DNA of 64,000 bases from a virus (IMGVR_UViG_2703718815_000003); one strand, 5' to 3'. Positions 1,230 to 63,600 are shown, counted from the first letter of the stretch. Notes: generated from the sequence alone by a model not told the origin. Translations and numbers: made by a program.

Positions 1230-1367
1230 GTGTTTTTCTCTTCTTTGCTGTTACATAAGCACTACCAAGTGCTGGTTTATTTTCACAAATAAGAAAAGGT
1301 AGAAAACAATTTATTTAAGGCCATAAGTTATGGCCTTTATTTATTCATGCAGAAGGATTTGTAGCGC

Positions 1368-4974: not shown

Positions 4975-5201
4975 CTAACCGTATTTCCATTAATAGTAAC
5001 ATTTGGAACAGGTAAATTGATGTAGTTGTCGTTGTTAAGAGGCATTAATGACCACACGGCATGTAGTGATTTACCCGGTGGCGGATTAGAGTACGTCTTA
5101 GAGCCTGATGACGCCGTAAATCGATCAAGAAAAAAAATAGGTGTAAGGAAGCCAGTAACGTTAATTCCTTTATTGTTGTAAATCCCTGTACCGTATGACA
5201 T
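4920..5201 (-). CDS. hypothetical protein (AT-rich)
   Basis: 93-aa ORF; GGGTGA-like RBS upstream of ATG at 5201. Confidence 0.3.
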   Translation of the reverse strand: MSYGTGIYNNKGINVTGFLTPIFFLDRFTASSGSKTYSNPPPGKSLHAVWSLMPLNNDNYINLPVPNVTINGNTVSWSNLYTGLGSYIYTYWG

Positions 5202-5255
5202 TTTTCACCCTTGTTTTTATCAACACAATATGGCCGATCATGCGGCCATATCAGA

Positions 5256-5825
5256 TCAATTAGAGCTTTGAAAGACTTTGTGTGGTTGTGTTGCGAGGTT
5301 ATGTCGATGGCTTAACTCACGCATCATGTCTTCAAGCCGACTCTTTGTGTCGTCGAGTTGGTCGGCCATTGCTCCCAAAAGCTGACGAACGGCCATCGGA
5401 TCATCGCTGTTTAGTGATGGCATTTTATAACCCGCCTGAGAAGACATAAGATTGAACGCAGACATCAACATCGTTAGAGAGGATTTAAGCCCAGCAATTT
5501 CACGATCTTTGCTGGCAATAATCGCCTCACTCTTGTTAGTGTCATCAGTTCGTTGAGTCTCGCTCACCATATCCAAAGTCGCCTGCAACTTATCAGCGCG
5601 CTCTTTTTCAGCAAGATAATGAACACCGAAATGATGTGCTAAAGCTACAACCTGAGTTGGCTCTTCAAAGGTGGACTCAAAATTAAGTGCTGTAACCACT
5701 CTCTCAAATATGGAAACGTCTTCTATTCCTCGAAGAATGGCTAACATTTTGACCAGTTCATTAGCATCCATTTCTTCGAATAAGGCGTTTTGTTCATCAG
5801 CTATCGCTTTGCATTTCTTGCACAT
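5256..5825 (-). CDS. hypothetical protein
   Basis: 189-aa ORF; AAACAAGTTGTTT palindrome 20-30 nt upstream of start. Confidence 0.4.
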   Translation of the reverse strand: MCKKCKAIADEQNALFEEMDANELVKMLAILRGIEDVSIFERVVTALNFESTFEEPTQVVALAHHFGVHYLAEKERADKLQATLDMVSETQRTDDTNKSEAIIASKDREIAGLKSSLTMLMSAFNLMSSQAGYKMPSLNSDDPMAVRQLLGAMADQLDDTKSRLEDMMRELSHRHNLATQPHKVFQSSN

Positions 5826-6122
5826 GTGTTTTTCCTAATGCTTAAACAAGTTGTTTTCTTATTGGCTTTATTGTGATGTGGCATAAAAGGGGAGCAAGCT
5901 AAACGTAAAGGTGCAAACTCTCTATTTCGGTCAACGAAACACAAGGGCCATTTGGCCCTTGTCATTAACACGTTGCTTTACGGACTAGCGGATAAGCGAA
6001 GTAGATCGCCAGACCAATGAGGACGCCATCAGAAATGACAGACATCATCTTTCCCGTAAAATCCACCAACACCGCCATCACCAGAAGAGCAATGACGATC
6101 ACAAGCCGGAATCTCTCAAGCA

Positions 6123-6548: not shown

Positions 6549-6641
6549 GTGCTTTCCTTTTATTATTTGTCAAAACAAGTTGTTTTCTAATTACATAAAT
6601 TGCTTACGCAGAGATGGTCAATGCATATGCACTAACAGCCG

Positions 6642-6830
6642 TCAGAAATAACCAAGTACCGAACCAACTGGAAAAACAAAAATCCCAACTACACGAGCCA
6701 AGGTCATGCCAGCCTGAAACTGGAGATCGCCAGAGCAAACAAGTTTTATAATGTTCGATACCCAACCGGCGGCCATAAGGGCAAGAATTGCCAGCCAAAT
6801 TTTTCCAAAGTGATTTGAAAACCAGTTCAT
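6642..6830 (-). CDS. small membrane protein
   Basis: 62-aa ORF with two hydrophobic helices. Confidence 0.3.
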   Translation of the reverse strand: MNWFSNHFGKIWLAILALMAAGWVSNIIKLVCSGDLQFQAGMTLARVVGIFVFPVGSVLGYF

Positions 6831-6839
6831 ACAACCGCC

Positions 6840-7334
6840 TTAGTCACAGCATGATCCTGAGTAACTGGATGAACTTGAGGTATCGCATCCACCGCCATCC
6901 CATCCAGAGTGACAGGACGCTCCACTGGAGTGGTGGTAATTGTCGTCGACGAAGGTGTGGTGATGGATGAATCCGGCATCAAAAGGCTCTGACCGGCTGG
7001 AACGGCTACCGTCGCCAGTGAAACTATAATGAGAACGTAGGCCATTGGTTTCAGCCTCTTTCTTTGAAAATTTTCCATTCGAACTGTCCTTGTTGTTTTT
7101 CTCCTTCACTAAAGGCCGTGCATTTTTCGCTTCGCGTGAAGAGCCAGAGGCAACAATCGCCCCCACGTTCGCAACAACTGACGCTTGATTATCTAAACGT
7201 TCATTCAGCAACCGAACGGTAGTCTCTAGTTCTTCAAGGCGTGACATAACACGACCGCTAAATAATTCGGCCAAAATTTGACGTAAAGAACGAGGGCGTT
7301 TAGTTACAGAAGTGAAATAGGTTTGACGTGCCAT
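6840..7334 (-). CDS. hypothetical protein (C-terminal half low-complexity; gene model uncertain)
   Basis: 164-aa ORF; N-terminal coiled-coil-like, C-terminal S/G/H/C-rich; overlapped by an alternative-frame ORF 6827..7078 that has a signal-peptide-like N-terminus. Confidence 0.3.
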   Translation of the reverse strand: MARQTYFTSVTKRPRSLRQILAELFSGRVMSRLEELETTVRLLNERLDNQASVVANVGAIVASGSSREAKNARPLVKEKNNKDSSNGKFSKKEAETNGLRSHYSFTGDGSRSSRSEPFDAGFIHHHTFVDDNYHHSSGASCHSGWDGGGCDTSSSSSYSGSCCD

Positions 7335-7354
7335 GTGGACTCCATCCAGTGTCA

Positions 7355-7385
7355 GAAAGAGTTGCGGCTGGCGATTGCCAGCCGC
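7355..7385 (-). terminator. stem-loop, candidate intrinsic terminator downstream of rnhA
   Basis: gcggctggc-gatt-gccagccgc 9-bp stem; flanked by T/A-rich sequence. Confidence 0.35.
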
Positions 7386-7482
7386 CTTTCTCGTTCCATC
7401 CTGGAACTGTGTCTTACCGACACATTGTCATCCTGACGCCGATAAGATACATGATTTAAAATGATAGGTAAACACTTACTTA

Positions 7483-8073
7483 CTATTTATTATAAACAAA
7501 ACCAATATCTTTCTTGTGAGGCATATCTGCTGCTGAAAAAGCTGCGATCTTCGCGAGTCGATCACATATTTCATTTTCACGATGCCCGGCGTGACCTTTA
7601 ACCCACTTCCAGCGAACATTATGTCGACTTGCGGCCTCATCCAGACGCTTCCACAGATCAACATTCTTTACCGGTTTTTTGTCAGAAGTCATCCATCCAT
7701 TGCGTTTCCACCATTTCATCCACTGTGTCATGCCGTTTTTCAGATACTGGCTATCAGAGTGCAAAATAACGTTGCATGGATATTTCAAACGCTCCAGCCC
7801 GATAAGTGCCCCCATCATCTCCATGCGGTTATTGGTGGTGCTATGAAAACCATCTGAGAACTCGCGTTCCTCACCACGATACTGGAGAACTATACCGTAA
7901 CCGCCCGGGCCACCCGGATTTTTAAGGCAAGAGCCATCACTGAAGATTTTCACGGTTTTAAGCTGGGGATTGAACTCTACGACAGGCGTTGTGGAATTGG
8001 TGCGGGGAGAATTTTTGTTTTTGGCTTTTTTGCGAGTTTTTTCTTGCGATCGGGCTGGTGTCTTCGTCGTCAT
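7483..8073 (-). CDS. rnhA: ribonuclease HI
   Basis: [47 protein letters not shown] motifs; start set at internal ATG 8073 with AGGAG RBS (ORF track extends to 8160). Confidence 0.85.
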
Positions 8074-8658
8074 ATAAACTCCTGAATCAAGCGCCGCGCC
8101 GATTTTTTTTCCTCGCGCGTGCGCACACGCGTGCGTGTTAATAATTATTAAAATAAACAAATTACTTCCCAGAACAGGTTTTTATAAACCTGAACTGAAC
8201 GAACGAAGTGAGTGAAGTTCACCTCGAACGAAGTGAGAGGTTGTCTTTTCAGGTAATACTCTCCCAGGGAGGTGAGTATAAAAATCCCTCACCAACCTGG
8301 TCGTTTCATAACCTGAAAAGTTATGGTCTAAGTCTACTGCCAGCTTAGACTTGGGAAGTTATGGATGACAGCACCCCAGAACCGAGATCTTCCCACACTT
8401 TATGAAGGGGAGTACTGGATTCAACCTCTCGAAACACCCCAGACTCGACAATCATAAAGTGACCCTTGTCTCCGCTCACTTTGGTTCCCCCTTCCCCGAC
8501 ACCTAAACGGCACCAGTTCTACGCTGGTAGTGAGCTTTTTTAAACCTGACGCCAGTGACGCTTACCCCCACCCATCAGGTCGAGTCTCCAGTCTACGACT
8601 GGAAACTATCAGATCTTAGCACTTACAATTCACTTTATGAATAGTTTGTACTTATCTA

Positions 8659-8913
8659 TCATTGTGATTGATTATTTTCTCTACCATGTAGTTGAACATT
8701 CAAGGCAAACACCTCATTGATCAACTCACCTAAAAGCTGTTCAACAAGTTCGCGATGCTCGCCAAGATGCAAGCACTTAATTGCCCATTCGTACAAGTTG
8801 AAAGCCTGCTCACGATCTTTCATCATTTCACGAGCCTGGGCCAGAAAATCGCTCTCTACGAGCGCAACGACATTAGTCGGGTATGACATGTTGGTTTCCT
8901 TAAAGTGGTTCAT
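8659..8913 (-). CDS. hypothetical protein
   Basis: 84-aa ORF. Confidence 0.35.
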   Translation of the reverse strand: MNHFKETNMSYPTNVVALVESDFLAQAREMMKDREQAFNLYEWAIKCLHLGEHRELVEQLLGELINEVFALNVQLHGRENNQSQ

Positions 8914-8994
8914 AAAATCGATTTTAAAGCGTCTGGGAAGGGGTTCTAGTGGATTCTGTAGTGATGTTCAGGTCTGGAGTCTCTGATACAAAAC

Positions 8995-9052
8995 AGCCTG
9001 CTTCCGTATATTAATAATTAATATGTAGTTATTTATATATACAGAAGCAGGC
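8995..9052. repeat. 57-bp palindromic element, copy 1 (cctgcttccgtatat / AT-rich spacer / atatacagaagcagg)
   Basis: 15-bp inverted repeat with one mismatch; near-identical element at 54318..54372. Confidence 0.6.
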
Positions 9053-9074
9053 TAATTACAGACGCCAGAACAAA

Positions 9075-16763: not shown

Positions 16764-16869
16764 GTGTTTTTCCTTTTTCTTTTTTGGTGCGTTTAAACAA
16801 GTTGTTATCTTATGTGTTTAAACAAGGCTTACAAATCAAAGAGAAGGTGGGGATATCCCCCACCATATG

Positions 16870-25022: not shown

Positions 25023-26117
25023 ATGTCCACAAAAAATAAAAAAGGTAAAAATAACAAAGAAGTAGAAGATAATCTCGACAACTTTGAAGAAGGTTCCCTT
25101 GAATTGTACACAGGGGAACTTGTCCCTAATAGCAACAATACAGTCCAACCAATTGCGTTGATGCGGCTGGGATTGTTCGTGCCCACGCTCAAGGGGACAA
25201 AATACAGCAAGCGTAACAAGCCAAATGAGATCGATGCTTCAAAGGAGCTTGTTCAGCTCGAAGTAGCCCGTTCTGAAGGCTATTCCGATATCAAGATAAC
25301 CGGTCCTCGTCTCGACATGGATCATGATTTCAAAACGTGGGTGGGCGTTGTGCGTTCGCTGGCAGAATACGGCGAACCTAACGGTCGTGTCGAGTTAAGC
25401 ATCACGAAATTTGCGAAGTTTTGTGGCTATCCATCGTCACAGATCCGCAAAACACTCCGCGACCGGCTTACAAACAGTCTTTTGAAGATCATGCGTACAA
25501 CTCTGTCTTTCCAGAGAACGTATGAAGAAAAGAACGTCGACGGCTCTAACAAGATCTCGCTTCTGATGGTGCACCTCATCAATAGCGTGGACTACAACGA
25601 GCAGAAAGATACGGTGGTGTTCTATGCAGAACCGAAGCTGGCCGAACTATATCGCTTTGACCATAAGGTTCTTTTGCAGTTAAAGGTTATCAATAAGCTA
25701 CCACGCAAAGAAACAGCACAGGCTCTGTACACCTTCATCGAAAGTCTTCCAACCAAGCCTGCGCCGGTATCGCTTGCTCGATTGCGTGCGCGACTCAATT
25801 TGAGTAGCAGGAATGTCAGCTCGCAGAATCAGACTATACGCAACGGCTTAAAAGCTCTCCAAGATTTGGGTTATCTCGAATACAGCGAGATTAAGCGAGG
25901 GCGGTCGATCTATATCCAGATTCACAGCCGCAATCCAAAACTCAAAGTCGCACCGCCAAAACCTGAAGACATCGAACCCAAAAAACTAGATGAGAAAGCT
26001 GGGGAAATTGATGCCAAACAGAACATTATCAACAAGATAACCGAACTTTCGCAGAATTTGACGCCTGAAAATATCAAGATGATTGAGATCCTTTCCAATA
26101 GTCTCAAACTGCTTTGA
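25023..26117 (+). CDS. repA: iteron-binding replication initiator RepA-like protein
   Basis: only long plus-strand ORF here; bracketed by direct-repeat arrays; start placed at ATG 25023 after last upstream iteron (ORF track starts at 24903 inside the iterons). Confidence 0.65.
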   Translation: MSTKNKKGKNNKEVEDNLDNFEEGSLELYTGELVPNSNNTVQPIALMRLGLFVPTLKGTKYSKRNKPNEIDASKELVQLEVARSEGYSDIKITGPRLDMDHDFKTWVGVVRSLAEYGEPNGRVELSITKFAKFCGYPSSQIRKTLRDRLTNSLLKIMRTTLSFQRTYEEKNVDGSNKISLLMVHLINSVDYNEQKDTVVFYAEPKLAELYRFDHKVLLQLKVINKLPRKETAQALYTFIESLPTKPAPVSLARLRARLNLSSRNVSSQNQTIRNGLKALQDLGYLEYSEIKRGRSIYIQIHSRNPKLKVAPPKPEDIEPKKLDEKAGEIDAKQNIINKITELSQNLTPENIKMIEILSNSLKLL

Positions 26118-28216: not shown

Positions 28217-28265
28217 GTTTTCTTATCCTTTTAAACAAATTATTTTCTTAATAAGATAATTGCGA

Positions 28266-29435: not shown

Positions 29436-31775
29436 TTAATCTTCTAGTTCTTCTGTTGGTGATGTCTTCTCTCGTCGGTCATCTATCGTCTGTAAAGCCG
29501 CAATGATTTCAGCTAGTGGCTTCTCCCGATACATCTCGACGATCTGTGATTTGGTGTATTTCTTGTCACCAATTTCAACTCGCCCGCTGGCGTTCTTTGG
29601 CAGGTATCCTTCTTCCAGCATGTACTCGACGAGCGACTCGATAACGTCGAGGCCACGAGTAGGATCGAAGTAGAATTTCCAGGTGCATTTGCCATACGGT
29701 GGTGCAACTTTGTTTTTGATGCACTCTGCGCCTACGTCCTGACCGATCTTCTCTTTCCCATCCTTCATCACCGATGCACCGAGACGGATGCGCACAGAAG
29801 CGTAAAACTTCGGTGAATCGCCGCCTGGCGACGTAGTAGGGTCGCCAAACATTACACCGATTTTTGTGCGAACCTGATTCAAGAAGATGATGCAGGCGTT
29901 GTATTTGCGTGCCCACAAAGCCAGAGTAGGGAAGTTCGCACTCGTCGCACGAGCCAGTGCCGTATTGTCGTTCATGTTCAGCTGATCTTTGTCTTTGGCA
30001 GTGCCTTCAGCCATCTTTTCGAACTTCTCGGCTTTGGAGTTCGGAACCATAGACGCAAGTGAGTCAGCCACGATACAGATAGGTGCTGATTCAGGAATAA
30101 GCTCTTCATCACGTACCAATTTAAGAATTGTGCCGATCAACTCTACAGAGTCTTCGAAGGTATCAGGCTGCTTGTATACCCACTGACCGTCATCCTCATC
30201 TGCGTTCAGACCATTGGCGACAGCCAGGCCAACGTCAAAACTGTTTTCATGATCGAGGAATACCGCCAGACCATCTTGTTTTTGAGCGGAGATCATCGCT
30301 GCTGTTGCAAGGAATGTGTTGTGGCTGATAATCCCGTTAGACCAGAAAGAGTGTGTTTCCGGCATCGCTACGTCGAACGTTGGTGCTTCACCTTCCTCAA
30401 TAGCCACGACTTCGTCGTAGAACAAGTTAGAGCCAATTACCGCTGCCAGTTGTGCAAACAGATGCTCGTTAAAACGATTCTTTCTGCCAATGAAGGAGAC
30501 ATAGATTTCTCGCAGTTTGTCTATTCCGACACGATCGCCGCGGCCAATAACGTGGTCTACCAGAGCGTAGTCTTCACGGGTGGTCTTGGTGAGCGACTCG
30601 TAGAGTGATTTCACTAAGCCGCTGATGTGCGGAACATAGCCTGAGTAAGTGCGGTCAAAACCAATGTCCCGTTTGGTTGCCACTGATAAACGTGCCGGAG
30701 ATTCGAAACCAATCGTTGACAGAAAAAGGTCGTAATTAGAGCCACTGAATGACAGCCGGTAATATGTATTTTCATAACCCGCGACGTGTTTTTCAGAGAT
30801 AGTTGACGTAATCCCCAGATTCAGGAGCATGAGGCGAATTTGCTGTAGCAGCAGCCCACTCGCGCTCACAACCTCAATGCAGCGACCATCATTGACGTGG
30901 CATTCCAGCTCAAAGTAGCCGCGAAGGAATGCAATTTGAGCCTCGCTATTGGCGCGACGCACACTCAACGGAACCTGCTTGCCAGCAGCTTTCTCATACT
31001 CCAGACCATATTCTTTAAAAAGCAGCGAACGCACCTCTTTGCTAAACAGCACATGGTCTTCCGAGCCGTTATGTTTTCTCGTAACTGGCATCTTGTCTGA
31101 TACCAGCGAAATGAGGCGGTAGTACTCATCCTTGATGAAAGGATCTGTGTTAGAAAAATTCACTGAATTTTCAGAGGCCACGTATCCGTCAGCAATTAAA
31201 TAGCCCATCAGTTTTGCGATATTGGCATCCAGGTGCTGATCGCCGAATTGATGTGTGCCAACCATTGAAGGAATCGTGTCGCCTACACTGATTTTTTCAG
31301 CATGTCGCCAGACGACATTACCTAAGTCGTCAACCACACGGATTGGGTGACGGAACGTAGCCTCGATATAACCGCCTGATGCCAGCTTAATACGCTTGAA
31401 TTTGCGACGGTTGTTCCATGTCAGGTGTGAGGTCTTCTCTATCACGCCATTTTCATTGATGAGTCCAACGTTATGCTCTACATCGCGAGTAGTGCATGTC
31501 GCTTTGTACCCTTCAATCTCAAACAACTCTTTCACTGTTACCATTCCACGCTCCGTCAGCAGCATGGTGTCTGCGGTAACACATTTCCCTGCACTTGGAG
31601 GACCGAATACTTCGACGATACGACCACATGGGAAGCCGCCATCGTAACGACCGGAAATAGCTTTGTTTAACGGTGGAAAGCCTGTATCAATCCAATGAGT
31701 TACTTTCTGAATTTCGTCGTTGCTACCGATTTTCTTTTTCAGAGCAAGTGCCAGTGCGGATTTTCCTTTTGCCAT
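29436..31775 (-). CDS. RecA-like recombinase interrupted by an intein
   Basis: extein: Walker A GPPSAGK|T split by insert, plus NQVRTKIGVMFGDPTTSPGGDSPKFYASVR RecA core; extein about 357 aa. Confidence 0.8.
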   Translation of the reverse strand: MAKGKSALALALKKKIGSNDEIQKVTHWIDTGFPPLNKAISGRYDGGFPCGRIVEVFGPPSAGKCVTADTMLLTERGMVTVKELFEIEGYKATCTTRDVEHNVGLINENGVIEKTSHLTWNNRRKFKRIKLASGGYIEATFRHPIRVVDDLGNVVWRHAEKISVGDTIPSMVGTHQFGDQHLDANIAKLMGYLIADGYVASENSVNFSNTDPFIKDEYYRLISLVSDKMPVTRKHNGSEDHVLFSKEVRSLLFKEYGLEYEKAAGKQVPLSVRRANSEAQIAFLRGYFELECHVNDGRCIEVVSASGLLLQQIRLMLLNLGITSTISEKHVAGYENTYYRLSFSGSNYDLFLSTIGFESPARLSVATKRDIGFDRTYSGYVPHISGLVKSLYESLTKTTREDYALVDHVIGRGDRVGIDKLREIYVSFIGRKNRFNEHLFAQLAAVIGSNLFYDEVVAIEEGEAPTFDVAMPETHSFWSNGIISHNTFLATAAMISAQKQDGLAVFLDHENSFDVGLAVANGLNADEDDGQWVYKQPDTFEDSVELIGTILKLVRDEELIPESAPICIVADSLASMVPNSKAEKFEKMAEGTAKDKDQLNMNDNTALARATSANFPTLALWARKYNACIIFLNQVRTKIGVMFGDPTTSPGGDSPKFYASVRIRLGASVMKDGKEKIGQDVGAECIKNKVAPPYGKCTWKFYFDPTRGLDVIESLVEYMLEEGYLPKNASGRVEIGDKKYTKSQIVEMYREKPLAEIIAALQTIDDRREKTSPTEELED
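30318..31583 (-). mobile_element. intein with LAGLIDADG homing-endonuclease domain inside the recombinase P-loop
   Basis: begins with Cys after GPPSAGK, block B TFRHP, LAGLIDADG-like LMGYLIADGY and LRGYFELE, ends ...IISHN followed by Thr (+1 nucleophile). Confidence 0.7.
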
Positions 31776-41890: not shown

Positions 41891-41988
41891 GGCTAATCCT
41901 TTGTTATGAAAACAAATTATTTACTAGTGTGTTTAATGTAGCACTGCGCGAACAGGGAACTAAGCCATTCGCGCAGGGAGAAGAGGGG

Positions 41989-42201
41989 TTAACAGATTCT
42001 GACGGCTAAAGACCCGGAGCCGGTATTGAGAAGCGTGAAGCGTTTGTTGTTAAGTTCGAATATAAATCCAGTTGTGTCATTCACACCAACCTGAATCTGC
42101 TCATTCGGTAGATCGGTGAGGATGTCAGCTACACACTCATCAGCTAATTTCTGTACGTGTCCGATCTCAAGAGCGATTAGGCTGGAAATAGTGGTGTTCA
42201 T
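41989..42201 (-). CDS. hypothetical protein
   Basis: 70-aa ORF. Confidence 0.3.
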   Translation of the reverse strand: MNTTISSLIALEIGHVQKLADECVADILTDLPNEQIQVGVNDTTGFIFELNNKRFTLLNTGSGSLAVRIC

Positions 42202-42377
42202 TCAATCAATCCATTCTAACTTATACTATGGTAAGGAATACTACTAAAATTTGTATCAATACTGAATACATTCATATCATATGCAAGTTGATTTTCTTAC
42301 CTGTTTTGGGCTAATTTTTCTCCGTGCAATGGCCTTTAAACGGTCTTTTAAGTGCCTATCGAAAAAATGATAATAGC

Positions 42378-42405
42378 TTTACAACCCTAACCTTTGATGT
42401 AATAT
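42378..42405 (+). promoter_or_regulatory. candidate sigma70 promoter for the XRE regulator gene
   Basis: TTTACA - 16 nt - TAATAT, followed by palindrome GGTAAGCACTTACC before the start codon. Confidence 0.4.
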
Positions 42406-42451
42406 CGGTAAGCACTTACCAGAGAGAATTGAACGCGCAAAGGTTGTAACC

Positions 42452-42838
42452 ATGTCTGATAACAAGATTGAATTTATAGAAAGTCGCTACGCTGCTTTTA
42501 TCGCAGGGTTGATTGAATCCTCACCTATGAGCCAGGCCCAGATAGCCAAAACAATTGGGTATAAAAACGCCAACAACCTTTCTTTAATTAAAAGCGGCAA
42601 AATTCCTTTGCCTATCGATAAGGTTCGTCCGCTGGCGCTGGCACTGGGCATTGAGCCAAGTCGTCTTATGATGATGGTGCTGGAAGAACGCCAACCCGAA
42701 CTCGCAGCATTTTTATACAAAGAAGGCACTGCTCCTCTTAACGAGGACGAAAAACAGGTTCTTGCTGCATATAACGAGCGATTCGGTAAAGAGAAAGGCG
42801 CATCACAAAAGGTTGTTGAGGCCATAAAGTCTCTATGA
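42452..42838 (+). CDS. XRE-family helix-turn-helix transcriptional regulator
   Basis: HTH SQAQIAKTIGYKNANNLSLIKSGK; plus-strand gene convergent with recombinase. Confidence 0.65.
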   Translation: MSDNKIEFIESRYAAFIAGLIESSPMSQAQIAKTIGYKNANNLSLIKSGKIPLPIDKVRPLALALGIEPSRLMMMVLEERQPELAAFLYKEGTAPLNEDEKQVLAAYNERFGKEKGASQKVVEAIKSL

Positions 42839-43936
42839 AAAATTTACACGAATAAGCTCTGTTGATAGACGATCTCCCTTAAATTTGTGGTCAATTTCGT
42901 CTAAATCCGGTTGCTCTACGATTGATGCGATGTACGTCGAGAAACTTTCTAAGGCGTCTCGCATCTCGTCCATATAATCGTGACGGTCGTAGACCCGATC
43001 TATCCCCTCAAGACTGTGGTTCATGATTTTACGTGATACCTCCTGGCTTATGCCTAATGCTGGGAAGTAACTACGCGCAGTACGGCGCAAATCTCGGGGT
43101 GTAAATGGCTCAAGCTCCATCAGTTCTGGTCGTTCCAGAATACGACGTAATGCCTGGGCTATTGCCACTTTAGACATAGGAAGGTCTTTCCCGATTTTTT
43201 TATTCGAAGGCACGAGCCACTGGCTGTCTTTACCATATTCGAACAACTCTTCAATACAAGTGCGCATTAATGAGCTTAAAGGCAGAGAATGCTCACGGGC
43301 AGATTTGTTCCTCTTGCCTTGATTCCAAACCCCACGCTTAAGATTGAACTCACTTTTTTTAGCCCGCAGTACTTCGTCAGGTCGTCTTGCTGATACAAGA
43401 CACAGTCTGGCCGCCCATTTTGTACCAGCGCACACATTGAAGTAGTCCCATATATTCCAGAACACCCATACCTCTGCGTCAGTCAGCTTCCGCTCGCGGG
43501 GCGTGGGCTTTGCGCCACCGGCAACTTTGTTAAGTGACATATCGTTTAACGGTGACACGTCTATCATCCCCTGGAAGGCGCACCAGCTAAGGAACTGCTT
43601 CATCAGAGAGAAAACGCGGCGGCCCATAACAATTTTGCCATCCAGTATTAGTGGGTTGACCAGTTGGTTCACCATGAACCTATTAATATCACTTACTTTT
43701 ACATCGGCAATGTGCGGCAAAACATGTATCAAAATACAATGAACAGCGATCTCTGGCCGACGTCTGGTTATCAGCAGAGATAAGCGAGTGAATAACATGA
43801 ATGCGTCCGAGAATCTCATGTCATTGCTAACCTGGGAGATCATAACGGCCTGCATTTGAGATGCTCTTTCGAGATACTCAATCGCCTCTTTTGAGGTGTT
43901 CTCCGCAGCGCGTGCTCTGTCAAAGCTATTTTTCAT
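42833..43936 (-). CDS. tyrosine recombinase / integrase
   Basis: C-terminal catalytic region with ...RRPDEV..., TPRDLRRTARSY and HSLEGIDRVYDRHDY (R-K-H-R-H-Y-type arrangement). Confidence 0.75.
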   Translation of the reverse strand: MKNSFDRARAAENTSKEAIEYLERASQMQAVMISQVSNDMRFSDAFMLFTRLSLLITRRRPEIAVHCILIHVLPHIADVKVSDINRFMVNQLVNPLILDGKIVMGRRVFSLMKQFLSWCAFQGMIDVSPLNDMSLNKVAGGAKPTPRERKLTDAEVWVFWNIWDYFNVCAGTKWAARLCLVSARRPDEVLRAKKSEFNLKRGVWNQGKRNKSAREHSLPLSSLMRTCIEELFEYGKDSQWLVPSNKKIGKDLPMSKVAIAQALRRILERPELMELEPFTPRDLRRTARSYFPALGISQEVSRKIMNHSLEGIDRVYDRHDYMDEMRDALESFSTYIASIVEQPDLDEIDHKFKGDRLSTELIRVNFS

Positions 43937-53424: not shown

Positions 53425-53467
53425 GTGCTTTCCTTTGTTTTTTAAACAAATTGTTTTCTAGTATTAG

Positions 53468-54217: not shown

Positions 54218-54317
54218 CTGGTAGGTAGTTACTTACTTATCACAATGAGCTGATGATAGCGATTGGTGGCAGTTTTTGGAAGTGGAAACGGAAGGGAGTT
54301 GTTCTGGTGGGTATCTT

Positions 54318-54372
54318 TTGAAAGACCTGCTTCCGTATATTTAATAAGTTACTTATTATTTATATACAGAAA
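54318..54372. repeat. 57-bp palindromic element, copy 2
   Basis: cctgcttccgtatat ... atatacagaaacagg; near-identical to 8995..9052. Confidence 0.6.
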
Positions 54373-54386
54373 CAGGTCATGAATAC

Positions 54387-56090
54387 TTAATTATTAAGCA
54401 ATCTGCTCACACGTAGTTTGTTAAGACTTGATCTAGAGGCCAGTTTCGTTAATGCACCTATTGCTTTATTCGTGATTTTTTGCTGTTCTTCTGTTAGTTC
54501 TTGCATACTTTTGAATCTGAGCAACCCCTTTCTCACTAAATCCAAAGCATCCTGATTGCGGGATAATATCCACTTTAAATAATCATCTTCAGAGAAACTG
54601 TTAAGATATGCTATGTCACTATGATTAAATTTGCCTTCAATTATTTTGTATAAAACATTCTCTAAATTAGTCTCTTCAGGCTTCTTATTCATCAATTTTT
54701 TTTGAATTAGCAGACCTAACTTTTCGTTACCAAATATCTCTACATACAAATTCCGAAAAGCAGTATAAGCATCATCTTGGCTAACAAAGGCATCTGCATA
54801 TGCCTCTATATAACTATCACAATCAATCTCCAATCTATTTAAGATATCAATCAAGCCTATGAAGTGAGCAACAGGTATGTGTGAAAGATTGTCGTTAATT
54901 ACACATTTTATCTTAGAAATAAACTCAGATTCATTGTCCTTGAATGAGTCACTAAAAATATCCCAAACATTGTTAACCTCACATAAAGCCTTGTGTTCTT
55001 TATATTGTTTATTTTTTTCTTCTATTATACCTCGAATATTGCTTTCAGTAGAAAGATAACCATTCTTGAGATAAAAATCTATGTCATCATCGAAAGCAAT
55101 TTCCGCTCGTTCATAAATAATATCAAGACTATTAATAAATGAATATACAGAATCATCCTTTTTATCATCTAACATGTAATCAAATACATGTATGTTTTTA
55201 ATTGATTCTTTAAACAAGGCATAATCAACACCTGGAACACCAGAATAGTAAACCACTGAAAACAGAACCAATCTATTGATAAAACTTTCTCTAACCTTAT
55301 CCTCTGCCAAGCTTAGCTCATTCCTAAGATTAACCAGAGATGTTTTTATTTTATTTAATATACGGATATTTTTAATGCCTAAGTCATTTGCTAAGACTTT
55401 TAACAAAAGAAAATCAGAATCAGTTTCATAAAAAACTTTACGTAAGTTCTTCTCAGGCGTAGGATCGTATTTTATTTCGACATCAATTACTTTTTCTCTG
55501 TACTCTAAAAACTGTTTTTTTGCAGTTTCATCATGTAAATTATCTTCATTTAAAATTAGAACAACTTTGCAGCCTTTTCTTCTTGCCAATTCATCAATTA
55601 CCCCCATAATTTCTTTAACTTCTAGCGAATTACCTTTTCTTTCAACATCATCAATACAAACCAAATAATTATTAACAAATTTATACTCAAGAGATGACAG
55701 CAGGTTATCTGTTTTGAACCCAAAAAAATCGTTCTTTCCGAAATGTATTAAAAATTTTGACAAGGAGTTGTATTTCAACCATCCCAAAAACCCATTTCTA
55801 TAACGAATCATAGTTCGATCCGTTTCAGATAAAATTAGTTCTTTATATTTCTTTTCATTAATTGGTGTGGCACAATGATAAAGAGCTTTTTTAATATCAC
55901 CAATAGAGTTAACCCCAAACAAAGAAACATACGAATATGCATTAAAATCTAATCCTTCAGAATGCTTAGTATAAAAACTATTCCAATAATGAGTTTTACC
56001 AACGCCCCAATCTCCTTTTATGACGGCAACCCGATGATCTGAAACTAGAAAATTTTTTAGAAATGATTCTATCGATTCCATTAGTATCAA
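54387..56090 (-). CDS. KAP-family P-loop NTPase
   Basis: KAP-type Walker A GDWGVGKT and Walker B-like LVCIDDVER; gene markedly more AT-rich than neighbours. Confidence 0.6.
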   Translation of the reverse strand: MILMESIESFLKNFLVSDHRVAVIKGDWGVGKTHYWNSFYTKHSEGLDFNAYSYVSLFGVNSIGDIKKALYHCATPINEKKYKELILSETDRTMIRYRNGFLGWLKYNSLSKFLIHFGKNDFFGFKTDNLLSSLEYKFVNNYLVCIDDVERKGNSLEVKEIMGVIDELARRKGCKVVLILNEDNLHDETAKKQFLEYREKVIDVEIKYDPTPEKNLRKVFYETDSDFLLLKVLANDLGIKNIRILNKIKTSLVNLRNELSLAEDKVRESFINRLVLFSVVYYSGVPGVDYALFKESIKNIHVFDYMLDDKKDDSVYSFINSLDIIYERAEIAFDDDIDFYLKNGYLSTESNIRGIIEEKNKQYKEHKALCEVNNVWDIFSDSFKDNESEFISKIKCVINDNLSHIPVAHFIGLIDILNRLEIDCDSYIEAYADAFVSQDDAYTAFRNLYVEIFGNEKLGLLIQKKLMNKKPEETNLENVLYKIIEGKFNHSDIAYLNSFSEDDYLKWILSRNQDALDLVRKGLLRFKSMQELTEEQQKITNKAIGALTKLASRSSLNKLRVSRLLNN

Positions 56091-56102
56091 TCCTTTAATT
56101 CA

Positions 56103-56129
56103 TATATTGGGCGTAACAAACGCCCAATA
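56103..56129. repeat. hairpin/palindrome between parG-like gene and KAP NTPase gene
   Basis: atattgggcg-taacaaa-cgcccaatat 10-bp inverted repeat. Confidence 0.5.
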
Positions 56130-56132
56130 TAA

Positions 56133-56492
56133 TCAACCTTTCTTCATCAACTCTCGTTTAATTTCATCGGTACGCATCGTAACGTCGGCAGCTGTGATCG
56201 CCTCGTTAAGCTTCACGATGTCCTCGATTTCCTGCGGTGACTTCTCTGCCAGATGGAAAATGGCTGCTCGAATCACGTCAGAACGAGTGAACTTCTCGAA
56301 GCGAGGGATGAACTTCATCATCTCCAGCAGTTCGAAGTATTCGTCCTCCAGTGACATTGTGCGGCTTTTAATTTTCTCTTTGCCACGAGTCGGGCGTCCC
56401 TGTGGTCTGACTGGTTGGCGCAAAGGAGTTGTGTTCTTAGCCGGTGCATCAGGCTCTTTGCGCTTTGCTAGGTCACCCATTTTCATGGACAT
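56133..56492 (-). CDS. ParG/ParB-like small partition protein (RHH-type, tentative)
   Basis: 119 aa; basic disordered N-terminus, C-terminal strand-helix-helix-like segment; start overlaps parA stop. Confidence 0.45.
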   Translation of the reverse strand: MSMKMGDLAKRKEPDAPAKNTTPLRQPVRPQGRPTRGKEKIKSRTMSLEDEYFELLEMMKFIPRFEKFTRSDVIRAAIFHLAEKSPQEIEDIVKLNEAITAADVTMRTDEIKRELMKKG

Positions 56493-57160
56493 TATTCTTC
56501 TTCCTCCAGACTCAACAGATAATCTACAAATTCTTCAAACTCGGCTTCCGCCTTTTTGTCGCGCTCGCTACCGGTCATTTCAAAGATAGAACGACCAGAC
56601 TCTTCCGCATCATCATAGACGTTGCGGTTATATAGATTGACTGGCGCAGACTCGATTCCAAACGTCTCAACAATCTCTTTAGCCGCCAGAATGCGAGACA
56701 CTTGTGATGGCAAAGCCGGGCACTGGTTCATGACCGCGCGGACCTTCACTTTATCGTTTACATTGCGAACATTGTCGATAATAGGATCGATGTCACGTAA
56801 AGATTTCAAATCACGACGCTTAGGACGCAGCGGGATAATGATAACGTCAGCCATCAGCATCGCTTGTCGCTGAATTTCGGAGTCGAAGCCACCAGCATCT
56901 ACCACTACAAACTCAGCTCTACCCTGAAGCGATTTTAGGTGCTTAATGATGTCATCCTGAACGTATGCAAAAGGAATCAGCTCAAGGTCTTCGTTCTGTC
57001 GACGGTCTTCACACCAGCTCGTTGTCGTGCGCTGAATATCTATATCGGTAATATAAACCTTCTTCTTCTTTTTGACTTTCAGGCAAACGGCAATTTGCTG
57101 GGCAACGGTGGATTTGCCAGGCCCGCCCTTTGTGCCGCCAACCACAAAGATCTTGGTCAT
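56492..57160 (-). CDS. parA: ParA-family partition ATPase (small type Ib)
   Basis: deviant Walker A VVGGTKGGPGKST, Walker B FVVVDAGG. Confidence 0.8.
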   Translation of the reverse strand: MTKIFVVGGTKGGPGKSTVAQQIAVCLKVKKKKKVYITDIDIQRTTTSWCEDRRQNEDLELIPFAYVQDDIIKHLKSLQGRAEFVVVDAGGFDSEIQRQAMLMADVIIIPLRPKRRDLKSLRDIDPIIDNVRNVNDKVKVRAVMNQCPALPSQVSRILAAKEIVETFGIESAPVNLYNRNVYDDAEESGRSIFEMTGSERDKKAEAEFEEFVDYLLSLEEEE

Positions 57161-57478
57161 TGGAGAGTTCCCTTTGCGTATATAATTATCGTCTGAAACA
57201 ACTTGTTTTCTTATATGTGATATAGCCTAAATGCCTACGGCTGCGGTGTAAAGGTTAAATGGTAGGTTGTGATTAACAATTGGCAATCATAGCTTGTATT
57301 TGTCTGTTGAAAAAAGTAACAATGACCTCTATATTACAAGTACGGTGATATGCCGTACACAATTTGATAATGCACACGTAATGGGCTATAGCCTTTTAAA
57401 GTAATTTTTGAGTCGAAAACTCAGTTTGAACAGAGGAGATTGATGGCCTTCCTACATCACGGCCATCAGGAGGAATAC

Positions 57479-57748
57479 ATGTCAGCACTAAAAAAGCAGC
57501 GCATCGATTTGAGATTAACCGATGACGATAAAAGCATCATCGAGGAAGCTGCCGCAATGTCTAACCAGAGCATTACTCAGTTTATGGTTAGCAGTGCATC
57601 TGAACGTGCCGTGAAAGTTATAGAGCAACACCGTAGACTAGTTCTGAATGAAGAATCCTGGAATCTGGTTATGGACGCTATAAGCAATCCTCCGGCACCG
57701 AACGACAAGCTGAAACGAGCTGCTGATCGTCTGAAAAGCATGGAGTAG
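57479..57748 (+). CDS. TacA-like RHH antitoxin
   Basis: 89 aa from internal ATG 57479 with AGGAGG RBS; MSALKKQRIDLRLTDDDKSIIEEAA... matches GNAT-associated antitoxins. Confidence 0.65.
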   Translation: MSALKKQRIDLRLTDDDKSIIEEAAAMSNQSITQFMVSSASERAVKVIEQHRRLVLNEESWNLVMDAISNPPAPNDKLKRAADRLKSME

Positions 57749-57755
57749 TTTACTC

Positions 57756-58277
57756 GTGAGCAATACAACGATAGAGATTTTCTCTGGAGAGAAAGATTAT
57801 GATCTAAACGGTTTTGATTGCGGCGAAGAGTCACTAAACGCCTTTTTAGCCAACCACTTAAAAAGGCAGCATGAGGGAAAAATTCTTCGTGCTTATGTGC
57901 TTTGCACTCAAGAAGAAAGGCCAAAAGTGTTAGGATATTACACTTTGTCAGGTAGTTGTTTTGAAAAGGAGTCCTTACCTTCAAGAAGCAAACAAAAGAA
58001 GGTTCCTTATCGGAATGTTCCAAGTGTTACTTTGGGTAGGCTGGCTTTGGACAAGTCCCTTCAAGGTCAAGGATTTGGCTCAATGCTTGTAACACATGCA
58101 ATGCGCGTTGTGTACAATGCATCTCTTGCTGTAGGCATTCATGGACTTTTCGTTGAGGCGTTAAATGACAAAGCCAAGGCGTTTTATAAAAGTTTAGGCT
58201 TTATCCAGCTGGTTGGTAACAACGAGCGTTCTTTGTTCTATCCTACAAAATCTATCGAAAAATTGTTCGAAGAATAA
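57756..58277 (+). CDS. GNAT-family acetyltransferase toxin (TacT-like)
   Basis: 173 aa, GTG start 8 nt after antitoxin stop; acetyl-CoA motif QGQGFGSMLV. Confidence 0.7.
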   Translation: MSNTTIEIFSGEKDYDLNGFDCGEESLNAFLANHLKRQHEGKILRAYVLCTQEERPKVLGYYTLSGSCFEKESLPSRSKQKKVPYRNVPSVTLGRLALDKSLQGQGFGSMLVTHAMRVVYNASLAVGIHGLFVEALNDKAKAFYKSLGFIQLVGNNERSLFYPTKSIEKLFEE

Positions 58278-58445
58278 TGTGTTCCCCTCATTTGAGGGGA
58301 ACTTCGACATCACCAACCACAAACCCTCTCTCCCATCGTATTGTGAAAAAGGATTTGGCGTTCGGTTTCTTCAGTCATTACATCATTATTGCTGATATAG
58401 ATAGGCTCAGCCCCATCGCAGAACAACACGCTGGCTGTTTGTGGT

Positions 58446-58697
58446 TTAATGACGCACCCACTTATCATACAACTCACGATGAACGGCAGAAGCATCTTTC
58501 TGACGTATTTTACTGCTCGTCTCATTCACCACTTTCACTGTGTTTTGAAGTCGTTTTCTGTCTTCCTGTTTTGCCTTCTCTTCCATTGCTCGTCGCGCCG
58601 CATTCCCGCCCATCGTGTAAGCGCCGACAAGAACGAAAAGAACGGCAGCCAGCGTAATCAAAGCAACTTTTAGCTTTGTCATCAGGCTGCCTAGCAT
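58446..58697 (-). CDS. small membrane protein with coiled-coil (spanin- or holin-associated candidate)
   Basis: 83 aa, N-terminal TM helix then charged helix. Confidence 0.3.
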   Translation of the reverse strand: MLGSLMTKLKVALITLAAVLFVLVGAYTMGGNAARRAMEEKAKQEDRKRLQNTVKVVNETSSKIRQKDASAVHRELYDKWVRH

Positions 58698-60651: not shown

Positions 60652-63600
60652 TTACATTTTTGCCTTCAGTTCGCGCACTTCCTCGCGCAGCTCTTTGACA
60701 GCCTCGACCAACATGCCGATAACGCCGTTGTAGTTAAGACGCAGACGAGGCTCTCCTGACTGATCGTTATGGTCAACCGTTACCAGTTCAGGCTGAACAT
60801 TCTGGACGTCCTGAGCGATGAGGCCGCCAGACTGCTCATACCGGTCACAGACCTGAATCTCGTACAGAACACCTTCGATCCGATCCAGCTTGTCGAGCGC
60901 TCGTTCAATCTTGCGAATATTGCGTTTGCTACGACGGTCAGAGCGGATATAAACGTCATTAAAGCTGCCATTACCGCCACAAACCCAAGTACCATCATTC
61001 TGGAGGTATGCGTTCGCATCCGTGCCGTTTGCGGTACGTGAGTTGTTGATCATGTAAAAACCAAACTGACTGTTTCCCAAGCCACCCAAGAAGAATTTGC
61101 GATCCGCGTGGTCTTGTCTCAACAACGCTTGTGCAGAGCTTGTACTTACAGCGTTCCTCCCGAAGATGACGTTCTGGTTACGCATATCTATCCACGCGCC
61201 AGAGCCGCTGTTGATGGAAAAACGGTTGGCGTAAACCCACGCACTTGACGTGATGTCACCCGTTACACTCAACGGCTTAAGGCTTTGCAGCGTGCTATTA
61301 ACGAACCTAAAAACATGGGCGCTATTGGCGTAAACATCCAGAATGCCATCTCCGTTCTGTTTAAAGCCGGTGTCATTGTCACCCAGAACAATGGAATTAC
61401 CGCCAAGACCATTGACCACACCCAGCCCAAGACCACCGTTAACAACAGCACCATTGCCCATTGTTACTCTGCCATTAGTGAGATCTACATAAAATGGACG
61501 AAGCGAACCTATATCACCATTTTCTCCCTGGTCTTTTGCTGTCGGGATAAGGTAAAAATTATTTTCGGAACGGCGAAAAATCATCCCGTATGCCGCATCG
61601 TAAATGCGTAACCCATCCGTAGAGCGGATCTTAAGCTGTCCGGACATCGTACCGCCGCTGTTTTTCATAAATAGCGCATCAATCCAGCCTGCAAATCCCG
61701 ACTTATTAATGTATAAATTTCCATCATTTGCCAGAATGCCTCCACCTTGCGTCTTGAGGGGCTGACTCACATTTTGCAGCGTCAGCACACCAGTCATTGT
61801 TCCGCCAGAAATCGGTAACGCACCGACATCAGCCGCAGTGGGTTTGAGAGCAGTGTTGTAATCTCTGCGCCAGGCAGGGGCATACGCGCTACCGTGATTA
61901 ATATAGGTGAACTGAGCACTGGCAATACCACCTCCGGTTGTCGTTGTAGGCGTAGTAACTCGGATGGTCATTGCGCCTTCGTGACCTAAAACCTCGATAA
62001 CCGCACCAGCAAGACAAATATTGCCGACACCTGTATCAGTGATAATTTTATTGTCGGCATATGACCAAGAGCCTTTCATCATCCAATACGGTACGGCGAA
62101 AGCACCACGCTCCTTCAGCCATGCGATAAATTCAGCGGTAGTCCAGTTGCCAGCCCCAGTACTGTATGACGCGCTAAACGTCTGTGCAGCCCCAACATCT
62201 TTCGCTGTGGGTTTATGAGCAGTGGTATAGACCTGCGCCCAACCAGACCAATTCGCTGTCGAAGTATCACGGCGTGAACGAACATAAACCGGTGCATGAG
62301 CACCATCCGTTCCGCTCCAGCCAACAAGCATCTCGCCCTCACCAGAAGCACTCGCACCTTTCATGTGCAATACGTTGCCATACATGGTCGGGTAGCTATT
62401 GTTGTACGCCTCATACATTTGAATGCCAGCAGTGCCTTGAGTAGAGCCGCTTAACGCCGTAACTCGGCCACGAGATACCAATGTATTAATATTGATATCG
62501 CCTGAACCATCAAACTTAACACCATTGATGTTTCTCGCTGTTTGCAACTTCGTAGCCGTTGAAGCATTGCCATTCAAGCTACCATTTACGCCACCAGTAA
62601 CATTGAGTCCATTAGCGATCGTAACAGCACCATTGGCATTGTTAATGATAAGCGGCCTTAAACTATTATAGGTTCCCAGGCTGTTACCCGAATTGGTCAA
62701 CATGAAATATGTGTTTGAACCATCGTTTCGGATAAAGAATCCGTAGCTTCCGTAGGCAATGCGCAGACCATTCGCCGATTTTGAAATGATCTCACCAGTA
62801 GCCGTTAAACCGCCGTTGAGATTTCCTCCGGTTATTGGTAATGCGCCGACATCCGTGGCGGTCGGTTTAATGTGCGAACTGTAAATGACATATACCGTTC
62901 CATCAGTAAGACCAGTTGGTTTATTCGCTGTATAAGTTGGTGATGTATGAATCGTTACGCTGGCGTTACTGGTATAATCCCACTGAATATTAACACCTGT
63001 GGCGTAATTACCTATTTCAACATAAACATCATAGGTATCACCGGATGTATTCACCCATGCAAAATTAGTAAATCCAACCGATGTCCGTCGCCATAATGCA
63101 CCAGTAATACCCTTTGGATTTCCATTTCCGGCACGCAGAACCAGCTCAGAGATGCCTGCTTGATGCGGGGAGCCAACGTTATACCCTGCACCACCAATCA
63201 GGCTTATGTAAACCACGGAACTGGCCTGTGGCATGGTTACAGTTGCCAGCTTGAACCATCCGGCACCACCACTAAAAGATATTGTTGCTGAGTTGATCGT
63301 GCCTATAGACCTTGGAGTTAGCTCAATGTTTTTAGAACCGTCAAACGACACCCCATTAATAGTACGCGCAGTCTGCAACTTCGTAGCAGTAGCCGCATTA
63401 CCTGTTGTATTCTGATTACCAGTCGTATTAACACCTGGCAAATTAATATTTGCAGTACCATCAAAGCTCACGCCGCCGATAGTTCTTGCCGTCTGTAGTT
63501 TTGTAGCAGTTGCGGCATTACCAGTGGTGTTCTGATTACCCGTAGTATTTACACCTGGAAGGTTGATATTTGCAGAACCGTCGAAACCAACTCCACCGAT

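Follow-up and report, generated by a model that had tools for sequence, protein, structure and literature searches.

The 64,000-nucleotide stretch of viral DNA analysed here (IMGVR_UViG_2703718815_000003, hereafter the window) carries, at positions 56,133 to 58,277, two divergently read gene pairs that we interpret as a type Ib-style partition locus (par), made up of a ParA ATPase and a small partner protein, backed by an AtaRT-type post-segregational killing cassette. We put the probability of this reading at about 0.8, as regards the identities of the genes and its general logic. Comparison of relatives indicates that par is core to this family of elements and that the toxin-antitoxin (TA) pair is an accessory cassette in a variable slot, the two being independent modules. 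Both modules are of well-known kinds, and public records already annotate them; the TA pair is a new paralogue of a structurally solved pair, the ParA partner is an orphan, and an undescribed dispersed dyad and a set of palindromes are the more interesting by-products.

By its sequence, the window is an Escherichia coli phage-plasmid of the SSU5 supergroup, of the pLF82/Cyrano type. The 2.4 kb around par and the TA pair are 99-100% identical to E. coli plasmids of ~110 kb; phage Cyrano, the pLF82 plasmid of strain LF82, matches at 99.1%. The Salmonella phage SSU5 is 86.5% identical and Klebsiella relatives are ~80% identical, with a match that covers only par and 107 bp upstream of it and ends at 57267. 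Gene order follows that of SSU5, namely tail fibre, lysis genes, par, and then helicase and primase. One flank of the par/TA region holds tail-fibre, holin, endolysin and spanin genes and the other a 249-aa gene, a DnaB-type helicase and a primase, and the tail, lysis, helicase and primase genes as well as dnaE, nrdAB and a Rep3 RepA are present in the window or in its 99.8%-identical relative. Near-identity to pLF82/Cyrano, synteny with SSU5 and the flanking phage and plasmid genes thus support the phage-plasmid lifestyle proposed in a first-pass annotation of this DNA, lysis and tail genes flanking the region at one end and replication genes at the other; the four open reading frames (ORFs) described there, in two divergent pairs, were also recovered by ORF calling. 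The SSU5 supergroup is already well surveyed, and its phage-plasmids are frequent in clinical E. coli, Shigella, Salmonella Typhi and Klebsiella, where resistance genes can be part of the cargo. Elements of the pLF82/Cyrano type number ~5 per chromosome, Cyrano is present at ~5.5 copies per bacterium in LF82 (PMC9928086), and our literature search found no experimental work on how SSU5-type phage-plasmids are maintained in the cell.

The ParA ATPase, its partner and their control region

The parA gene (56492..57160, minus strand) encodes 222 aa and begins MTKIFVVGGTKGGPGKST, a length within the ~200-230 aa range of type Ib proteins. Its deviant Walker A motif of the KGGxxK[ST] type (GGTKGGPGKST, residues 7-17) aligns to that of ParF and lies near the N-terminus (start at residue 9), with no N-terminal DNA-binding extension. 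In a Pfam scan the MipZ, AAA_31, CbiA and ParA families match, the best solved relatives among Protein Data Bank (PDB) entries are ParF (4dzz) and TP228 ParA (5u1g), at 1.2e-10, and PHROG 164, 'ParA-like partition protein', matches at 4e-51. Judged by these matches, the product is a small, ParF-like partition ATPase of the Walker type and of class Ib, in line with the small deviant-Walker ParA first proposed.

The gene for the 119-aa partner (56133..56492, minus strand) overlaps parA, as had been noted before; the overlap is one base at the parA stop codon (TAATG), and the gene is translationally coupled to parA. In all relatives examined, with protein identities ranging from 100% to as low as 26%, it directly follows parA, and in LF82 lysogens its Cyrano counterpart, CYRAN_29, is transcribed at nine times background (PMC9928086). 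The protein belongs to PHROG 5111, which is listed as of unknown function. Only 25 clusters out of 5.8 billion and 18 representatives out of 1.84 billion proteins make up its tiny family, and no Pfam domain or name is attached to any of them. Conserved features of the family are an N-terminal MGDLAK(R/K), a variable linker, a basic stretch rich in P, R and G that ends in IKSRTMSLEDE, and then FTRSDVIRAAI. Like many type Ib partners it is an orphan, and we presume that it is a centromere-binding, ParA-activating protein.

Structure prediction gave two AlphaFold monomer models of the partner, with a predicted local distance difference test score (pLDDT) of 63 and 72.8. In the better one (pLDDT 72.8, and ~90 for residues 50-110) helices span residues 48-59, 70-82, 86-97 and 101-117, the pLDDT of residues 1-25 stays under 50, and K, R and P abound in residues 10-44. 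In this monomer model the first two helices (48-59 and 70-82) follow KSRTMSL in an order like that of a ribbon-helix-helix (RHH) protein, and two extra helices come after them; the pattern KSRTMSL / EDEYFELLEMM / TRSDVIRAAIFHLAE reads as strand, helix, helix. Sequence and profile searches gave no Pfam match and no PDB match, and nothing significant was found in PADLOC or NCBIfam scans. The only sub-threshold signals were NCBIfam aCcr1_fam (21 bits against a cut-off of 60) and RHH_1 in two of nine family members, at E values of at least 0.005. Comparison by hhalign with ParG, for which the query sequence was verified as 1p94, gave a probability of 0.1%, and comparison with the RHH antitoxin of the window itself gave 0.2%. 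Because a swapped ribbon would be invisible in a monomer model, and given the strand-helix-helix pattern and the sub-threshold aCcr1 and RHH_1 signals, we place an RHH fold of the partner at about even odds. The term 'ParG-like' used in the first-pass annotation is apt for the position, the size and the flexible basic N-terminal tail of the protein, but all tests of homology or fold against ParG and RHH proteins were negative or below threshold, and we reject membership of the ParG family on the hhalign probability and the missing Pfam and PDB matches.

Upstream of parA, the control region (57161..57267, minus strand) extends to the point where homology to the relatives ends. A putative par promoter can be read from the sequence at 57224..57252 (minus strand), with a -35 element TTTACA at 57252-57247, a 17-nt spacer and a -10 element TAGGCT at 57229-57224. 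A strict consensus promoter scan did not pick it up, and its architecture recurs in diverged loci, as TTTACA-17-TAGGCT in two of them (L009 and L015) and as TTGTCA-17-TAGGCT in a third, of Klebsiella lineage (L006). The par transcription start, a position that we infer, would place a 17-bp dyad, GAAAACAAGTTGTTTCA (57194..57210, minus strand), at about +5 to +21 of the parA leader. The 78-bp block 57190-57267 is near-invariant among E. coli, Salmonella and Klebsiella elements whose parA genes are 80-87% identical; a control block that is better conserved than the coding sequence points to stronger constraint on the block than on the protein. In more diverged loci two elements are kept, the -35/-10 pair with its 17-nt spacer and the dyad, GAAAACAA-N-TTGTTT(T)C (window 57210-57194). 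The TATAT-GTG-ATATA and TAGGC-N3-TAGGC features of the par promoter are not kept there.

Just past the partner stop codon lies a perfect hairpin with a 12-bp stem (56103..56131, minus strand; -17.9 kcal/mol, z -5.6), at the junction with an island that carries a KAP-family NTPase gene. Cyrano has no KAP gene, and homology to Cyrano begins at 56132-56133.

The toxin-antitoxin cassette and the slots around par

The TA cassette, an insert of ~1 kb (57268..58302, plus strand), separates the par promoter from the end of the lysis cassette and brings its own promoter, operator, two genes and terminator hairpin. The antitoxin gene was first called from a TTG at 57440; three lines of evidence, namely alignment with KacA and AtaR, the start that RefSeq calls in a plasmid 99.8% identical, and the AGGAGG at 57468-57473, identify the ATG at 57479 as the real start. 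The resulting gene (57479..57748, plus strand) encodes 89 aa of the DUF1778/TacA1 family, with the RHH domain at the N-terminus and the toxin-binding region at the C-terminus; the protein matches Pfam PF08681 at 5.7e-26 (90.7 bits against a cut-off of 21), KacA (5zgn) at 6.6e-42 and AtaR (6ajm) at 1.3e-40, and is 76% identical to AtaR. After a gap of 7 nt follows the GNAT toxin gene (57756..58277, plus strand; GTG start, 173 aa), whose residue 1 aligns with residue 1 of AtaT. The toxin is 69% identical to AtaT (6gts, 1.4e-79), matches KacT (5xun) at 1.4e-74 and Salmonella TacT (5fvj) at only 1.9e-11, and keeps both the acetyl-CoA loop QGQGFG (103-108) and Tyr144, the equivalent of the catalytic Y145 of KacT, for which a Y145F variant was used in KacAT DNA-binding assays (PMC6698736).

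By homology, the toxin is an aminoacyl-tRNA acetyltransferase of the AtaT/KacT type, and the sequences make the pair a distinct paralogue of AtaRT/KacAT. This agrees with the GNAT toxin and RHH antitoxin originally called on the plus strand. 'TacA-TacT-type' was right for the superfamily, a DUF1778 antitoxin with a GNAT toxin, but not for the subfamily, which is AtaRT/KacAT. Transcription of the toxin gene in LF82 lysogens reaches 35 times the local background, and that of the antitoxin gene 60 times (PMC9928086).

A putative TA promoter, TTGAAA-17-TATATT (57307..57335, plus strand), has 10 of 12 consensus matches. Five nucleotides after its -10 element, and spanning the expected transcription start, is the dyad GTACGG-N7-CCGTAC (GTACGGTGATATGCCGTAC, 57340..57358), slightly longer than the TACGG-N7-CCGTA inverted repeat already pointed out in this intergenic region. 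The pattern is expected by chance 0.07 times per 64-kb window. Identical half-sites with identical spacing stand upstream of the chromosomal ataRT of O157:H7 (GTACGGTGACATACCGTAC; L010, 358-376) and of a plasmid paralogue (L011, 282-300), and since these two operons are only ~66-68% identical to the cassette at the DNA level, the shared dyad is no chance match. KacA, too, has a palindromic operator that covers the transcription start, and reads it with R8, D10 and R12 (PMC6698736). All three residues are conserved in the antitoxin of the window. Arms and spacing equal to those of the ataRT dyad, together with the position after the TTGAAA-17-TATATT promoter, indicate that GTACGG-N7-CCGTAC is the AtaR-type operator of the TA pair and not a par site or a centromere.

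At its other end the cassette closes with a GC-rich hairpin (58281..58302; -17 kcal/mol on either strand, z about -5) between the toxin gene and a convergent Rz1-like lysis gene (58310-58525, minus strand), which is likely to serve as a two-way terminator. Chromosomal ataRT (for example L010, 403-1203; ~66% DNA identity, same operator arms) is found on the chromosomes of 1,626 complete E. coli genomes, or ~30%, so many hosts of the phage-plasmid carry two AtaRT-type systems. Antitoxins and operators appear similar enough that cross-repression and cross-neutralisation with the chromosomal system are possible.

The closest complete relative, NZ_CP085184.1, carries metG (methionyl-tRNA synthetase) and apbC at 77831-81122, a part that lies outside the window. 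The two genes are neighbours on the E. coli chromosome as well. The presence of metG is curious because the canonical AtaT target is Met-tRNAfMet.

The distribution of the two modules separates them. The par locus is found on 737 PLSDB plasmids (Klebsiella, Escherichia, Enterobacter, Salmonella and others), every one of them an SSU5-type element of ~100-125 kb or a cointegrate, with no match on a plasmid that is not a phage-plasmid; among 5,426 complete E. coli genomes it occurs in 264, always on plasmids. The TA cassette is found on 143 PLSDB plasmids, nearly all from Escherichia or Shigella, a number equal to that of plasmids with par and TA contiguous, and in all 143 carriers it sits at one fixed site. 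It occurs in 152 of the 264 complete E. coli genomes with this par locus and is absent from SSU5, PhiR41_1, pJN2-26, L006 and L009. The same site holds two unrelated genes in SSU5 and PhiR41_1 and one gene in pJN2-26, and in L006 the slots on both sides of par are empty, leaving upstream only the lysis terminator and ~40 bp before the par -35 element.

parA and the antitoxin gene are 279 bp apart if the latter is counted from the TTG and 318 bp apart if it is counted from the ATG. Since the contents of the slot vary and homology ends at 57267, the '280-bp intergenic region' from which both pairs were said to be read is the junction between a core promoter and an inserted cassette. The further idea that par and TA form, with repA, a complete plasmid stability region does not hold up, as par is core, the TA pair is an accessory cassette, and repA (Rep3 family, ~25062-26117, plus strand) lies ~30 kb from par and does not adjoin it.

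Downstream of par, the slot of the window is filled by a gene for a KAP-family P-loop NTPase (54387..56090, minus strand), which is cargo of that slot and a neighbour of par rather than part of it. It matches Pfam KAP_NTPase at 1e-4 and the PADLOC candidate PDC-S49 at 2.3e-22, making it a candidate defence gene. In relatives the downstream slot holds Abi_2, DUF2971 or other genes, and in one relative the upstream slot holds ApeA-HEPN together with an S24 peptidase. Cargo of this kind in relatives was read at 6650-9000 and 10591-11559 of L015 and at 3088-5000 of L002. Across these sequences, both flanks of par are cargo hot spots.

Such contents raise the question of whether the slots are defence hot spots and the TA cassette is mainly anti-phage, abortive-infection cargo instead of a plasmid addiction module. 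The KAP NTPase with its PDC-S49 match and the ApeA-HEPN and Abi_2 genes in the same slots of relatives would fit this, and recent reviews argue that many type II TA systems act against phage (PMC10865869). However, no PADLOC model matches the TA pair, and the cassette keeps to a fixed site beside par within one clade of phage-plasmids, much as P1 carries phd-doc. We regard a mainly defensive role as possible but on the unlikely side, and the two roles are not mutually exclusive.

Dispersed dyads, palindromes and other readings of par

The parA-leader dyad belongs to a dispersed operator-like motif, (T)AAGAAAACAAnTTGTTTAA, with 8 matches in the window against 0.69 expected, a number reached in none of 100 shuffles. 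Seven of the eight are in gene-sense orientation and precede an ATG by 14-33 nt (5842-5858, 6571-6587, 16793-16809, 28231-28247, 41908-41924, 53442-53458 and 57194-57210), where they head a 189-aa gene, a TerB-like gene, nrdB, a DUF7238 gene, a CobT-like/AAA/dnaE operon, dnaB and parA; the eighth is a weaker copy at 1302-1318 (plus strand). The complete 99.8%-identical relative has 13 sites, most of which follow the end of a -10-like hexamer at a distance of 11-14 nt (GATAAT three times, TATTAT, TATTGT, CACAAT, TCTAAT and TACATT, with TAGGCT for parA), a spacing that would put the dyads at about +5 to +21 of the transcripts. SSU5, Klebsiella elements, L006, L009 and L017 all keep the dyad upstream of parA and dnaB, and the parA leaders of L015, L016 and L019 have none. 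These patterns indicate that the dyad is not specific to par and that par is wired into a phage-plasmid-wide regulon. Our literature search found no description of the motif sequence.

An RNA hairpin was considered and rejected, since the dyad has no stable fold (-0.5 kcal/mol, z 0.36), which argues for a site on duplex DNA. We also considered whether the dyad is of the operator type used by a helix-turn-helix (HTH) switch repressor. A divergent region resembling an immunity switch lies at 42202-42451, between a 70-aa gene (41989-42201, minus strand) and a 128-aa HTH gene (42452-42838, plus strand) that is followed by an integrase gene (42833-43936). This region contains no copy of the 17-bp dyad and carries GGTAAG/CTTACC dyads instead, such as GGTAAGTGCTTACC at 42406-42419, and the operator type was rejected on that account.

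The binder of these sites could be the ParA partner itself, acting as both global regulator and centromere protein. It would then bind the dispersed dyads (AAGAAAACAAnTTGTTTAA) at parA, dnaB, nrdB, CobT/dnaE and about nine other places and silence lytic replication genes in the plasmid state, the same sites serving as dispersed centromeres, by analogy with N15 SopB, RK2 KorB and pSM19035 omega. It is established that the small partner of a type Ib system must act at the parA promoter, and the dyad is the sole parA-leader element kept across lineages whose partners are 33-100% identical. Strong over-representation, gene-sense orientation, a fixed position relative to the -10-like hexamers, the lack of RNA structure and the different dyads of the HTH switch region all agree with such a role, and in lysogens the partner gene is expressed and the replication genes headed by the motif are absent from the list of expressed genes (PMC9928086). 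On the other hand, L015, L016 and L019 encode homologous partners yet have no dyad in the parA leader, and the partners of L015 and L017 are near-identical in their putative DNA-reading segments although only L017 keeps the dyad. A single 17-bp dyad per site is also unlike the arrays of known type Ib centromeres, and any other regulator of the phage-plasmid could bind the motif. This extended role of the partner, both as regulator and in silencing lytic genes from sites that double as centromeres, is doubtful in our view. If true, one protein of a previously undescribed fold family would, from dyads ahead of parA and of at least a dozen early or replication operons, run both partition and the silencing of lytic DNA-metabolism genes; even with another binder, par would be a member of an undescribed phage-plasmid-wide regulon.

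A second class of candidate site is an AT-centred palindrome of ~55 bp with conserved arms, CCTGCTTC(C/T)GTATAT. One copy lies at 54324..54378, at the far edge of the slot downstream of par, and another at 8995-9053; NZ_CP085184.1 has three (30475-30525, 60992-61046 and 92754-92808). Genomes carry two or three palindromes ~30 kb apart, one adjoining par and the downstream slot and one just upstream of the operon for the terminase large subunit, and in relatives with an empty downstream slot the palindrome follows directly after the partner gene, as long inverted arms. As RNA it would fold at about -28 kcal/mol (-28.7, z -9). Its sequence and position would suit a terminator, a centromere or an origin element.

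That the palindrome is the centromere of par is, in our judgement, unlikely. The window, Cyrano, SSU5 and L009 all have it beside par, L006 and L017 in the form of long inverted arms, and copies separated by 45 kb agree in the sequence of their arms, beyond mere pairing. P1, F and N15 offer established precedents for centromeres downstream of parB and for dispersed inverted repeats. Nevertheless, a very stable hairpin with a short T-run could be a plain terminator, and since the palindrome is always next to the 249-aa gene (PHROG 2500) and the helicase-primase module, an origin or a control site of that gene is an equally good reading; as a centromere it is a candidate drawn from sequence.

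The weakest alternative takes the partner for a RelE/ParE-type toxin, which is hardly credible and which we reject, as its sole support is an annotation in the public Cyrano record and a table of the Cyrano paper, whereas the protein has no RelE/ParE or other Pfam match and no PDB match, its model, all helices behind a disordered basic N-terminus, does not resemble the RelE fold, and in every relative its gene is coupled to parA with no antitoxin-sized companion. The public record (OV696614) gives CYRAN_29, at 5002-5361 of the record and 56133-56492 of the window, as 'RelE/ParE putative toxin', and the paper lists it under this name among toxin morons (PMC9928086).

Two further observations concern other parts of the element. 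A second recurring leader motif, ATAAGTAAGTAACTACCTA, precedes the 249-aa PHROG 2500 gene at 54226-54245 and is conserved among relatives. In L017 the corresponding sequence, GTAAGTATGTAA(A/G)TGTATACATA, stands before three genes (7201, 10898 and 15178), including a holin-side gene, and the motif may mark a second regulon. At 29436-31775 (minus strand), an intein that carries a LAGLIDADG homing-endonuclease domain splits a RecA-like gene (Pfam RecA 3e-36, LAGLIDADG_3 2e-17, Intein_splicing 2e-11).

Proposed mechanism and known systems

Several points weigh against the partition-plus-addiction reading. The ParA protein matches NCBIfam ParA_partition at 1.9e-33 with 115.7 bits, which is below the curated equivalog cut-off of 180. 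Sequence, profile and fold tests detected no relationship of the partner to known centromere-binding proteins, and its AlphaFold2 monomer model has no ribbon strand. There are no iterated centromere-like repeats near par: a search for direct and inverted repeats over 55900-57500 gave only short two-copy matches, and 57161-57440, within the interval where the first-pass annotation had suggested looking for repeats bound by the ParG-like protein (57160..57440), has no iterated repeats. The sole conserved dyad of the parA leader is common to about a dozen other operons and may for that reason belong to another regulator. For the TA pair, the PADLOC scan lists no defence system, and by its sequence the pair may serve addiction or phage defence. 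The searched literature yielded no experiment on this par or this TA pair. The roles considered above for the partner as a global regulator, for the palindrome as centromere and for the cassette as defence cargo are all compatible with the partition and killing functions proposed here and do not exclude them.

Gene identities, translational coupling, sequence conservation, the match of the operator and transcription in lysogens are shown, and what is proposed on top of them is that the partner binds DNA and stimulates the ATPase, that par regulates itself, which tRNA the toxin modifies, and addiction. In the mechanism that we propose, the TTTACA-17-TAGGCT promoter would drive parA and the coupled 119-aa gene leftwards, and ParA dimers in the ATP form would bind the nucleoid. 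The partner would bind phage-plasmid DNA through its helical C-terminal part, and its disordered basic N-terminus with MGDLAK(R/K) would trigger the ParA ATPase, so that copies spread apart as in the ParF-ParG systems of type Ib. Because this ParA has no DNA-binding extension of its own, the partner should also repress the par promoter, most likely by contacting the near-invariant block 57190-57267.

The cassette would back up partition. By homology, the GNAT toxin is expected to acetylate the amino group of a charged tRNA, which for AtaT is the initiator Met-tRNAfMet, and thereby block translation, and the C-terminus of the antitoxin would wrap around the toxin and inactivate it. Two antitoxin RHH dimers in a T-A2-A2-T hexamer would likewise bind GTACGG-N7-CCGTAC over the transcription start, with repression following the toxin:antitoxin ratio. 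Cells that have lost the plasmid would lose the labile antitoxin first and arrest. The parts are now defined for testing, namely a core ParA with an orphan partner, a conserved control block, two classes of candidate cis-acting site and an AtaRT-like cassette.

Among known partition systems, the closest model is ParF-ParG-parH of TP228, which shares with the locus described here a small ParA with a deviant Walker A motif (ParF being the best solved match), a small partner encoded immediately downstream, whose N-terminal tail is flexible and basic, and a control region upstream of parA. The partner differs from ParG in its length, 119 aa against 76 aa, and in being modelled with four helices and no ribbon strand, and in contrast to parH no array of short repeats lies upstream of parA. 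Partition proteins whose sites are scattered at promoters and control expression are known from N15 (SopB), RK2 (KorB) and pSM19035 (omega), and they are relevant here only if the partner does act as a global regulator; unlike theirs, the dispersed dyad is only a candidate site and may belong to another regulator.

For the TA pair, AtaR-AtaT of E. coli O157:H7 and KacA-KacT of Klebsiella pneumoniae agree in gene order, short gap, catalytic Tyr, R8/D10/R12 and operator dyad. Compared with chromosomal ataRT, the cassette is only ~66% identical in DNA, is carried solely at one site of SSU5-type phage-plasmids and often coexists with the chromosomal copy. TacA-TacT of Salmonella belongs to the same superfamily and is distant, with TacT (5fvj) at 1.9e-11 against 1e-79 for AtaT. 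As a whole, the arrangement resembles parABS and phd-doc of P1, a low-copy plasmid prophage in which active partition is likewise backed by a type II TA system; P1 uses a type Ia ParA, an HTH ParB and the Doc kinase toxin, which are of unrelated families, and in P1 both modules are core, whereas here only par is core and the TA cassette is accessory.

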